From contig NZ_CP165719.1 of the NCBI RefSeq assembly GCF_041508025.1, forward strand, positions 736,023-800,022: a DNA stretch of 64,000 nucleotides, in the 5' to 3' direction. The position numbers and the translations under genes are program-made. Source of the DNA: Candidatus Uabimicrobium helgolandensis (GTDB lineage Bacteria; Planctomycetota; Uabimicrobiia; Uabimicrobiales; Uabimicrobiaceae). Shown here piece by piece: positions 36,021-37,616 of this stretch. Each line of letters opens with the position of its first letter. Position 1 is the first letter of the stretch. The notes under the pieces were generated by a model that did not search any database, was not told the DNA's origin, and worked only from the letters and a program-made list of their open reading frames with translations.

Positions 36021-36048
36021 TTGATTTTTAAATTACTTCATCTATAAT
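36021..36048 (+). promoter_or_regulatory. Putative sigma70-type promoter for tRNA-Pro (TTGATT-16 nt-TATAAT)
   Basis: The -35 box is at 36021-26 and the -10 box at 36043-48, placing the predicted TSS about at the mature tRNA 5' end (36056). Confidence 0.5.
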
Positions 36049-36055
36049 TACGGGC

Positions 36056-36130
36056 CGGGGTGTAGCTCAGCTTGGCTAGAGTACTTGGTTTGGGACCAAG
36101 GGGTCGCTGGTTCGAATCCAGTCACCCCGA
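36056..36130 (+). tRNA. tRNA-Pro (anticodon UGG)
   Basis: It folds as a cloverleaf by hand. The acceptor stem is CGGGGTG/CACCCCG. The D-arm is GCTCAGCTTGGCTAGAGT. The anticodon stem is CTTGG/CCAAG with loop TTTGGGA. The T-arm is GCTGGTTCGAATCCAGT. The discriminator is A, and no CCA is encoded. Confidence 0.9.
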
Positions 36131-36137
36131 TACTATA

Positions 36138-37616
36138 ATGAAACATTTCTATAAAAACACAAAAAACTTCCGCAAAAACACAGAAGCATTATCCTCATAC
36201 ATTATACATCAACGTTGGTATCGAGGGAAATCACAATCCAACCACAACATTTCTATCGATGATGTTATTGAAATTGCAAATGAACAATATATTTTTATTG
36301 TAACGGCAAACAATTCTATAAAACATAAATACATTCTTTTTCTAATTCTCTCTGAACAAAAACAACAAAATTCTATGTTTAATTTATATATAGATAATAA
36401 ACAATTATTTGTTTATGATGGATGTCAAAATGAGGAATATTGTAATAATCTGTGGAACATAATACAATTTCCAGATACATATCGTAATTTGAGTAGCTTT
36501 ATTATTCATCAAAATTTAGATCTCTCAATTAACAACTCAAAACTGCAAGATATTGAGCAGAGCAATACGAACATCATCTATGATGATCGCTTGTTACTCA
36601 AAATATTTAGGCAACCTCAACCTGGCACCAATCCTGATTTAGAAATAAATGTCTTTTTAAGCGAACAAGGTTTTTGTCACGTACCAAAAACAGTCGCTGC
36701 TATTCGTTATACATCAGACAGTGGTAAAATTTTCGATATTGCTATTGTCCAAGAATTAGTGAAAAACGCTAAAGATTGCTGGGAGCATACCGTCGATTTA
36801 GCAAGTAAGTTTTTAGTCCAAAATCGCGAAGAAAATTTAGCACAACGTTCGATTTTTAGCAGTTTAAAAACAATACCAAGCACAATGGAGTTATCCGCTA
36901 ATTTTGCCAAATTACTAGGGCAACGAACAGCCGAACTTCACCTAGCACTTACTAATACTAATGACAATGCTGATTTCACGCCATCAAAAATCGATAATCT
37001 TTATTTACTAAATCTATATAAAGGTTTTTGTGGTATATTGCAAGAGGTTGTCGATACATTAGAGAATAGTGATATGAGGACTAATCACAATGTCATTAAA
37101 TTTCTTGAGGCAAAGAATTATCTACAAACGCACTTTGAATCGTTGACAACGATAAAAACAGAGGGATTCCGTATTCGCTGCCATGGAGACTATCATCTTG
37201 GACAAATTTTAAAGTTAGAAACAGACATTGTTATTCTAGACTTTGAAGGCGAACCACTTCGTCCCATAGAAGAAAGGCGCCAAAAACAATCTCCTTTTAA
37301 AGATGTAGCAGGAATGATTCGTTCTTTTAACTATGCTGGATTTAAAGCCGCCATGGATTTAGGAACTACAGATATCTCTCGTGCAAACTATTGGGGGAAT
37401 ATTGTTTCCACAACATTTTTAAGTGAATACCTGAAAGTCGCTGAAAGTGGAAAGTTTTTATCGCAGAATAAACAACAACAAAGAGTTCTACTACAATTAT
37501 TCTTGTTTGATAAAGCTCTTTATGAATTGAAATATGAATTGAACAATCGCCCTGACTGGGTTCATATACCACTATCTGGTATAATCTCATTATTAAATGA
37601 TGTCATCGAAAAATAA
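36138..37616 (+). CDS. Maltokinase-like (Mak/Pep2 family) APH-fold kinase
   Basis: The C-terminal catalytic motifs RCHGDYHLGQIL and ILDFEGEP match maltokinase. The ATG lies 7 nt after the tRNA 3' end, so the longer ORF start at 36072 overlaps the tRNA and was rejected. Confidence 0.65.
   Translation: MKHFYKNTKNFRKNTEALSSYIIHQRWYRGKSQSNHNISIDDVIEIANEQYIFIVTANNSIKHKYILFLILSEQKQQNSMFNLYIDNKQLFVYDGCQNEEYCNNLWNIIQFPDTYRNLSSFIIHQNLDLSINNSKLQDIEQSNTNIIYDDRLLLKIFRQPQPGTNPDLEINVFLSEQGFCHVPKTVAAIRYTSDSGKIFDIAIVQELVKNAKDCWEHTVDLASKFLVQNREENLAQRSIFSSLKTIPSTMELSANFAKLLGQRTAELHLALTNTNDNADFTPSKIDNLYLLNLYKGFCGILQEVVDTLENSDMRTNHNVIKFLEAKNYLQTHFESLTTIKTEGFRIRCHGDYHLGQILKLETDIVILDFEGEPLRPIEERRQKQSPFKDVAGMIRSFNYAGFKAAMDLGTTDISRANYWGNIVSTTFLSEYLKVAESGKFLSQNKQQQRVLLQLFLFDKALYELKYELNNRPDWVHIPLSGIISLLNDVIEK

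Follow-up and report, generated by a model that had tools for sequence, protein, structure and literature searches.

A proline tRNA gene abutting a maltokinase-like gene in Uabimicrobium: a conserved junction and a possible tRNA-led mRNA

We analysed a 64,000-nucleotide stretch of DNA (hereafter, the window) from the genome of 'Candidatus Uabimicrobium helgolandensis' HlEnr_7 (CP165719), a planctomycete with phagocytosis-like uptake of prey (PMC11481906) and a genome of 9.3 Mb (a 9.32-Mb contig). At the centre of the analysis lies a gene for tRNA-Pro(UGG) at positions 36056–36130 of the forward strand, which is followed on the same strand by a coding sequence for a maltokinase-like protein of the Mak/Pep2 family at 36138–37616. 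The two are separated by a 7-nucleotide spacer, tactata (36131–36137), between the tRNA discriminator base and the ATG at 36138. An earlier note on this DNA had proposed from this arrangement that the two genes form a co-transcribed tRNA–mRNA unit with near-leaderless translation; the spacer length on which it built was borne out, with both tRNA ends confirmed by ARAGORN and Rfam. For comparison, orthologous loci were fetched via the kinase protein and via a neighbouring gene. They comprise Uabimicrobium amorphum SRT547 (loci L001 and L004), a metagenome contig (L002), a Logan contig reached by way of the radical-SAM protein encoded nearby (L009), and a more distant Logan contig with 47% amino acid identity (L003). 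As L009 is 95% identical to L002, the number of independent lineages is four (U. helgolandensis, U. amorphum, L002/L009, and L003).

The tRNA gene matches the Rfam model RF00005 over model positions 1–71 of 71 with 63.5 bits (gathering score 29), with the same ends as in ARAGORN, which assigned the anticodon TGG. No other tRNA gene occurs in the window. Direct reading places C1 (36056) opposite G72 (36129), with the discriminator A73 at 36130. The C1–G72 pair and A73 are identity elements for bacterial prolyl-tRNA synthetase. The CCA end is not encoded, the discriminator A being followed by TAC. An E-value scan with Rfam across 35300–38600 returned no riboswitch or leader, and the tRNA was the one real match. 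A gene for a prolyl-tRNA synthetase with a ProRS-C_1 C-terminal domain is located about 16.5 kb upstream of the tRNA gene (17996–19519, forward strand).

Upstream of the tRNA gene, the promoter scan identified a -35 hexamer TTGATT (36021–36026) and, after 16 nucleotides, a -10 hexamer TATAAT (36043–36048) on the forward strand, as the earlier note had read them, followed by the seven G+C-rich nucleotides tacgggc up to tRNA position 1. The promoter and terminator scans, which covered U. helgolandensis, U. amorphum, and L002, consist of consensus matching only and are not functional evidence. This site (36021–36048) agrees with the consensus at 10 of 12 positions and is the top promoter-like site between 35400 and 38500. 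Such matches are common in AT-rich DNA (15 found, compared with 12.7 expected in shuffled sequences), so the match alone proves little, and what makes it credible is that relatives conserve it at the same position: the same TTGATT, the same 16-nucleotide spacing, and the same offset occur in U. amorphum (L001, position 5884), L002 (position 5950), and L009. Immediately upstream, a T-rich, UP-element-like tract on the forward strand (tttcttattttttatttttttgta; 35997–36020) has a counterpart at the equivalent place in the same three relatives and could act as an UP element. With this T-rich upstream tract and a G+C-rich discriminator, the tRNA promoter is probably strong. Given the spacing that normally separates a -10 hexamer from the start site, transcription would be predicted to begin 0–4 nucleotides before the mature tRNA 5' end.

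Between the tRNA gene and the kinase reading frame, the terminator scan revealed no terminator-like site on the forward strand, and no promoter-like site passed the scan on this strand from 36049 to 36268. A purine-rich Shine–Dalgarno sequence is also missing before the ATG at 36138, as positions -13 to -9 read CCCCG and belong to the tRNA acceptor stem; scan and direct reading agree here with the earlier note. A terminator-like hairpin at 36187–36166 was dismissed as a chance match because it lies on the minus strand, where there is no gene to terminate, within an indel that is not conserved in U. amorphum or L002. No start other than the ATG at 36138 is usable, since any downstream start would remove the conserved N-terminal cap (QRWYRGK/IDDV): the next in-frame ATG, GTG, or TTG is codon 80 in U. 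helgolandensis, codon 86 in U. amorphum, and codon 77 in L002, and there is none within 130 codons in L003. A true start further downstream with its own ribosome-binding site is thereby made very unlikely. On the upstream side, in-frame TTG codons fall inside the tRNA, and L003 has an in-frame TAA 9 nucleotides before the ATG. The four orthologs share the start MKH(F/I)Y. Gene callers mis-start this reading frame because it stays open through the tRNA gene. The list of open reading frames for the window places the start inside the tRNA (514 amino acids, TTG at 36072; 36072–37616), and the same artefact appears in the metagenome gene call of L002 (506 amino acids, P0003; 6001–7521).

The kinase gene is an intact reading frame for 492 amino acids plus stop; the earlier note had correctly recognized it as Mak-like, and its figure of 493 had counted the stop codon. 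The NCBI annotation contains the identical 492-amino-acid protein (P0001, 100% identity) under the name hypothetical protein. The model TIGR02457, 'putative maltokinase', matches over the whole length with 326.1 bits, under its curated cutoff of 375.05. Among Pfam models, APH alone was found, with 22.8 bits compared with 23.2, and Mak_N_cap was not reported. Maltokinases of known structure are matched with E = 4e-37 (PDB 4o7o) and E = 5e-37 (PDB 4u94). In an alignment of the kinase with eight homologs, the motifs HGDYHLGQ, DFEGEP, EQSN, and NPD are invariant, as is QRW.R.K in the cap (residues 25–31), and the N-terminus is alignable with the family from the QRWYRGK motif onward. The protein thus resembles Mak/Pep2 of the GlgE alpha-glucan pathway (PDB 4o7o, 4u94, and 5jy7; TIGR02457) over its full length, including the N-cap and the catalytic motifs HGDxHLGQ and DFEGEP, but it shares only 32–36% identity with named maltokinases and falls below the NCBIfam trusted cutoff. 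Distant Mak homologs (L005–L008), with 32–36% identity, have no tRNA nearby, and three of their genes (L006–L008) sit in clusters with GlgE, a TreS-like alpha-amylase, and GlgB. In contrast, the U. helgolandensis gene is neither fused nor adjacent to treS, glgE, or glgB, and the 64-kb window contains no treS, glgE, glgB, or other glucan-pathway gene. Across the four lineages, the pairwise ratio of nonsynonymous to synonymous substitution rates (dN/dS) is 0.07–0.23, with a saturated proportion of synonymous differences (pS 0.66–0.78); all five sequences are full length and free of frameshifts. By these comparisons, the kinase gene is intact and under purifying selection.

The junction itself is shared among the relatives, which answers affirmatively the earlier note's question of whether related mak-like genes are tRNA-adjacent; this holds in all four Uabimicrobium lineages and not in the distant homologs. 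In U. amorphum (L001), tRNA-Pro occupies 5919–5993 and the ATG lies at 6001; the corresponding positions are 5985–6059 and 6067 in L002, and 4564–4638 and 4646 in L009, in each case with the 7-nucleotide spacer tactaca. The L003 contig starts within the tRNA, whose 3' half is identical, and continues with an 11-nucleotide spacer (tttaaaaaatt) and an ATG at 49. In every lineage, the spacer has a T directly after the discriminator and an A at -3 and at -6. Compared with U. amorphum and L002, the U. helgolandensis sequence is identical at 36–41 of 61 positions upstream of the -35 hexamer, 26–27 of 28 in the promoter block, 6 of 7 between the -10 hexamer and the tRNA, 75 of 75 in the tRNA, 6 of 7 in the spacer, and 40 of 69 in coding nucleotides 25–93. 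The first eight codons on the forward strand (ATGAAACATTTCTATAAAAACACA; 36138–36161) are nucleotide-identical in U. helgolandensis, U. amorphum, L002, and L009, so that direct reading gives 24 of 24 coding nucleotides; the alignment shows 23 of 24 through gap placement only. This block stands out from flanking sequence of about 60–67% identity and an overall nucleotide identity of 0.58–0.67 in the coding sequence; in the rest of the gene, only about 0.5 of the codons at conserved residues are identical. Seven consecutive codons that could vary synonymously are identical in all these lineages, which argues for a nucleotide-level constraint on the start region.

The surrounding gene order is likewise kept, all on one strand: BNR_2, two membrane proteins, tRNA-Pro, the mak-like gene, DsbD, an AmmeMemoRadiSam radical-SAM enzyme, and a Ser/Thr kinase. 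Neighbouring intergenic gaps vary between loci, with values of 116, 136, and 572 nucleotides upstream and of 158, 179, and 834 nucleotides downstream, while the distance from tRNA to ATG stays at 7–11 nucleotides. Its retention in four independent lineages despite saturated synonymous sites places the junction beyond chance, and on the loci compared it is a trait of the Uabimicrobium clade. When genome contigs were searched with an alignment of the four orthologs, U. amorphum and a single Omnitrophota homolog that lacks the tRNA were the only hits. A protein-pattern search of metagenome contigs yielded no further loci, and the DNA pattern 'tRNA 3' end + N{3,30} + ATGAAACAY' had zero matches there. 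With both metagenome searches empty and the genome search nearly so, the clade is known from these four lineages only.

The missing Shine–Dalgarno sequence is specific to the kinase gene, as its neighbours use such sequences. Among the 27 window genes that start with ATG, G occurs at positions -11, -10, and -9 in 14, 9, and 13 genes, respectively, compared with a background of 18%, and about 15 of 41 open reading frames in the window carry GGAG, GAGG, or AGGA at Shine–Dalgarno distance. The simple explanation that this genome lacks Shine–Dalgarno sequences was therefore discarded. The start region of the kinase mRNA is predicted to be nearly unstructured: folding of 36131–36210 gave a minimum free energy of -1.6 kcal/mol (z = -0.41), no better than shuffled sequences. 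It is also compositionally distinct, since 36150–36249 has a GC skew of -0.43 and an AT skew of +0.42, the strongest excess of C over G and of A over T in the kinase gene, within an A-rich region that extends to about 36250. A-rich contexts have been reported for Shine–Dalgarno-independent initiation in other phyla, and the conserved A residues at -3 and -6 are similar, which offers a lead only. Weak initiation of this kind may thus take place on a processed RNA with a short leader, and the unprocessed precursor would be a poor substrate for translation, because the folded tRNA, ending at -8, would fill the space of the 30S subunit platform. The first ~110 nucleotides of the kinase mRNA, for which hardly any structure is predicted, also resemble Rho-utilisation sites, an observation of composition only.

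How, then, is the kinase gene transcribed? Any RNA that includes the AUG at 36138 must start at or before it, and the corresponding -10 element must lie inside or upstream of the tRNA gene. In U. helgolandensis, U. amorphum, and L002, the tRNA and the coding sequence share a strand, a promoter precedes the tRNA, and the consensus scans place neither promoter nor terminator between the two. The simplest reading is that both genes are co-transcribed, either from the tRNA promoter or by transcription that enters from further upstream, as every gene between 33005 and 43826 has the same orientation. On balance, we lean towards a single transcription unit from which the tRNA would be excised, leaving an mRNA with a short leader and no Shine–Dalgarno sequence for translation. 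The architecture and co-transcription are well supported by the sequence comparisons; processing by RNase P and an RNase Z-type enzyme, translation from a 7-nucleotide leader, and any regulatory use are steps that we infer.

In such a scheme, the sigma-70-type promoter at 36021–36048 would drive the unit, and the tRNA would form effectively the whole 5' untranslated region of the kinase mRNA. RNase P would cut at the tRNA 5' end, and an RNase Z-type endonuclease would cut after the discriminator. An enzyme of the latter type is expected because CCA is not encoded and the next base is U in all five sequences; bacterial tRNA precursors without CCA are reportedly cut endonucleolytically by RNase Z (Pellegrini et al. 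2003, cited in PMC5449637). As maturation of tRNA-Pro requires cleavage at 36130 and subsequent addition of CCA, the downstream RNA must be severed there or nearby. The released mRNA would carry a 5'-monophosphate and the 7-nucleotide leader UACUAUA before the AUG (11 nucleotides in the most distant lineage), and initiation at 36138 without a Shine–Dalgarno sequence would rely on the A-rich, unstructured first 25–100 nucleotides. An attached, folded tRNA that ends 8 nucleotides before the AUG would hinder the 30S platform, so that excision would be a precondition for translation. Weak initiation and a 5'-monophosphate end, which favours decay, might hold production of the enzyme far below that of the tRNA; more speculatively, Rho acting on the unstructured and poorly translated start region with its excess of C over G might also damp output, a thought prompted by the C-over-G skew only. 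As a tentative extension, which we consider possible but would not presume, the tRNA might be an obligatory licensing element: the kinase mRNA would become translatable only after RNase P/Z excision, and synthesis of the Mak-like enzyme would read out tRNA-processing capacity together with the growth-rate control of the tRNA promoter, as a bacterial counterpart of mitochondrial tRNA punctuation that selection maintains in a large genome without compaction, with initiation on the processed 7-nucleotide leader independent of a Shine–Dalgarno sequence.

Several points weigh against excision followed by translation from a short leader. A 7-nucleotide leader is not truly leaderless, yet it is too short for canonical docking of the 30S subunit. 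In Escherichia coli, a few added 5' nucleotides reduce leaderless translation, and translation of the kinase mRNA could be very poor, in a genome where many genes carry Shine–Dalgarno sequences. The expected strong tRNA promoter would be ill-suited to an enzyme gene unless mRNA decay or Rho damped its output, and such damping is speculative. The invariance of the tRNA sequence could reflect constraint either on the tRNA itself or on a promoter hidden within it, and the two cannot be told apart. Finally, the evidence comes from one tRNA locus, the only one that the window holds.

The most serious competing explanation, which we nevertheless regard as unlikely, accepts co-transcription but supposes that the tRNA is not removed, or only partly. 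It would then act as a structured 5' cap that shields the mRNA, or the kinase would be made from a minor unprocessed fraction, and the tight spacing would be an inherited accident, for instance of an old insertion, rather than a switch that depends on processing. The junction layout itself is compatible with this. Mobile DNA classically inserts at tRNA genes, and the mak gene of this clade has left the GlgE/TreS/GlgB cluster, unlike that of the distant homologs; nor does any evidence speak for regulation. However, a neutral accident would not be expected to keep 6 of 7 spacer and 24 of 24 coding nucleotides amid saturated synonymous sites and several-fold changes in the neighbouring gaps. A folded tRNA of 75 nucleotides placed 8 nucleotides before the AUG would, to judge from ribosome footprints, occupy the space of the 30S platform. 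A functional tRNA-Pro also needs an exact 3' cut at 36130, which separates the downstream RNA from each maturing tRNA.

Independent expression of the two genes, with the kinase transcribed from its own promoter hidden in the tRNA gene or spacer, appears improbable. Two candidates exist, TAGAGT (36077–36082), a TANNNT motif in the region of the D-arm and anticodon stem, and a perfect TATAAT (36134–36139) that overlaps the ATG and has TTCGAA 17 nucleotides upstream, and conservation of the tRNA would mask any constraint on a promoter within it. Both fail the scan, however, with a -35 match of at most 3 of 6. The TATAAT at 36134–36139 becomes TACAAT in U. amorphum, L002, and L009 and AATTAT in L003; two of its six positions are fixed by the ATG and the rest fall in the spacer, which is so rich in A and T that chance alone should produce some resemblance to TATAAT. 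As a -10 element, it would direct transcription from about 36145–36147, past the only usable start codon, and a transcript that began inside the tRNA would have half a tRNA in its leader and would still lack a Shine–Dalgarno sequence. Far less probable still is that the kinase reading frame is a silent relic, as the earlier note had considered, or starts downstream at its own ribosome-binding site: the missing Shine–Dalgarno sequence, the shortfall against TIGR02457 (326 compared with 375 bits), and the lack of glucan-pathway neighbours could be read that way, but the low dN/dS, five full-length sequences without frameshifts and with invariant catalytic and N-cap residues, the distance to or absence of a next start codon (77–86, or none within 130 codons), and the L003 stop just upstream of the ATG speak against it, and we reject the relic reading.

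Co-transcription followed by tRNA excision, which we favour, has partial parallels in known systems. Among bacterial systems, those closest in kind are the classical tRNA-led operons of E. coli, and thrU-tyrU-glyT-thrT-tufB is one of them. Others are metY-rimP-nusA-infB (PMC6511841) and, with the order reversed, the tRNA–mRNA operon secG-leuU (PMC2241853). According to the account of Regnier & Grunberg-Manago (1989) given in PMC6511841, the cleavage that releases the tRNA from metY-nusA-infB also starts decay of the downstream mRNA. The predicted likeness to the tRNA-led operons is a shared promoter and primary transcript, from which, in E. coli, the tRNA is released by endonucleases. The E. 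coli operons differ in a gap of about 100–200 nucleotides with terminators, a P2 promoter after metY, RNase III and RNase E sites, and a normal ribosome-binding site, whereas the Uabimicrobium gap is 7–11 nucleotides and contains none of these. The downstream gene also differs, encoding a sugar-kinase-like enzyme in U. helgolandensis and a translation factor in E. coli. The earlier note's statement that tRNA-linked mRNAs are rare in bacteria as processing-dependent expression units holds only in part; what is unusual is abutment within 7–11 nucleotides that is conserved in an uncompacted 9.3-Mb genome.

In mechanism, the locus would resemble the tRNA punctuation of mitochondrial genomes (Ojala/Montoya/Attardi 1981, as cited in PMC4633059), and in plant mitochondria RNase Z and RNase P define mRNA ends at tRNAs and t-elements (PMC1920247). 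Shared features are a tRNA that abuts a coding sequence, the absence of an encoded CCA, and, presumably also in U. helgolandensis, mRNA ends made by RNase P and RNase Z, which leave mRNAs without Shine–Dalgarno sequences and with leaders of zero to a few nucleotides. Mitochondrial punctuation, in contrast, is genome-wide and accompanied by extreme compaction and a specialised ribosome, whereas U. helgolandensis offers one locus in a free-living organism with 9.3 Mb of DNA, ample intergenic space, transposable elements, and neighbouring genes that use Shine–Dalgarno sequences. In human mitochondrial mRNAs, the gap between tRNA and coding sequence is typically 0–3 nucleotides, and the 7–11 nucleotides in Uabimicrobium are somewhat longer.

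Leaderless bacterial mRNAs, as described in Actinobacteria (PMC3848588, PMC4633059), likewise lack a Shine–Dalgarno sequence, have the AUG at or near the 5' end, and have an unstructured start region. Their 5' ends are triphosphates set by transcription initiation, whereas the U. helgolandensis end would be a processed 5'-monophosphate with 7–11 nucleotides left. A strict definition of leaderless genes places the 5' end 0 to ~5 nucleotides from the start codon and a -10 element about 7 nucleotides upstream; here, the spacer measures 7–11 nucleotides and the corresponding -10 position before the ATG at 36138 reads CCCCGA, part of the acceptor stem. Because the usual definition requires both this distance and a 5' end set by transcription initiation, the kinase mRNA would not count as leaderless. 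Of the earlier proposal, the co-transcribed unit is therefore retained, on the strength of the sole conserved promoter-like element, which precedes the tRNA, and of the 7-nucleotide gap, too small for a promoter, a Shine–Dalgarno sequence, or a terminator, in an architecture kept in four lineages, and the term near-leaderless proves too loose.

A literature search for bacterial abutment of a tRNA and a start codon, or for leaderless mRNAs generated by RNase Z, found no precedent, which is not proof of absence. Compaction cannot explain the junction in a 9.3-Mb genome with transposable elements inserted on both sides, and its conservation points to function. If the proposed processing is correct, a bacterial chromosomal gene would give rise to an mRNA without a 5' untranslated region of its own and with an end made by tRNA-maturation enzymes, a mode so far linked to mitochondria. 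The locus would then be a natural system for studying how ribosomes handle very short processed leaders, how tRNA excision can gate translation, and how the output of a tRNA promoter can be uncoupled from that of an enzyme. For now, the junction appears to be a single-locus curiosity, albeit a clean, conserved, and easily testable one.

The elements inserted around the locus resemble miniature inverted-repeat transposable elements (MITEs). They are ~253–278 nucleotides long and apparently flanked by TA, with 20-nucleotide terminal inverted repeats (TAGGGCGTGTCATCATTCAA); a pair of G+C-rich 34-nucleotide inverted repeats in their interior would fold into a long hairpin. A sub-threshold Rfam match between this hairpin and the precursor of a plant miRNA (27 bits compared with 211) was set aside as chance. 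Copy A (29108–29360) has its internal part inverted. Copies B (35498–35775) and C (37747–38022) are 98% identical, in direct orientation, and bracket the tRNA and mak genes; copy B, at a distance of 246 nucleotides before the -35 hexamer, does not disrupt the promoter, and copy C lies between the mak stop codon and dsbD. The element is absent at all fetched loci of the relatives. These have the same junction without any MITE, and a composite mobile unit of tRNA and mak was therefore rejected as the reason for their adjacency.

At the 3' end of the mak-like coding sequence, an extended -10-like motif (TGGTATAAT; 37577–37585) lies within the codons for the conserved motif ...SGII..., and at the equivalent place U. 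amorphum has TTGGCT-18-TATAAT with a TG (L001, 7398–7427). The motif may serve the downstream dsbD, radical-SAM, and kinase genes as an internal promoter, or be a mere by-product of coding constraint. These genes form a conserved co-directional cluster at 38451–43826, also present in L001, L002, L003, and L009, which encodes a DsbD-like protein, an AmmeMemoRadiSam-type radical-SAM enzyme that is 72–75% identical across many phyla, and a Ser/Thr protein kinase. In L003, mak is followed by the cluster genes and a DUF547 gene at intervals of only 4–25 nucleotides, and five genes may there form an operon headed by the tRNA. Elsewhere in the window, a 2179-amino-acid open reading frame on the minus strand (3274–9813) joins a protein-kinase domain to numerous WD40 beta-propeller repeats, which fits the expansion of Ser/Thr kinases that PMC11032199 reports for the Uabimicrobium lineage.

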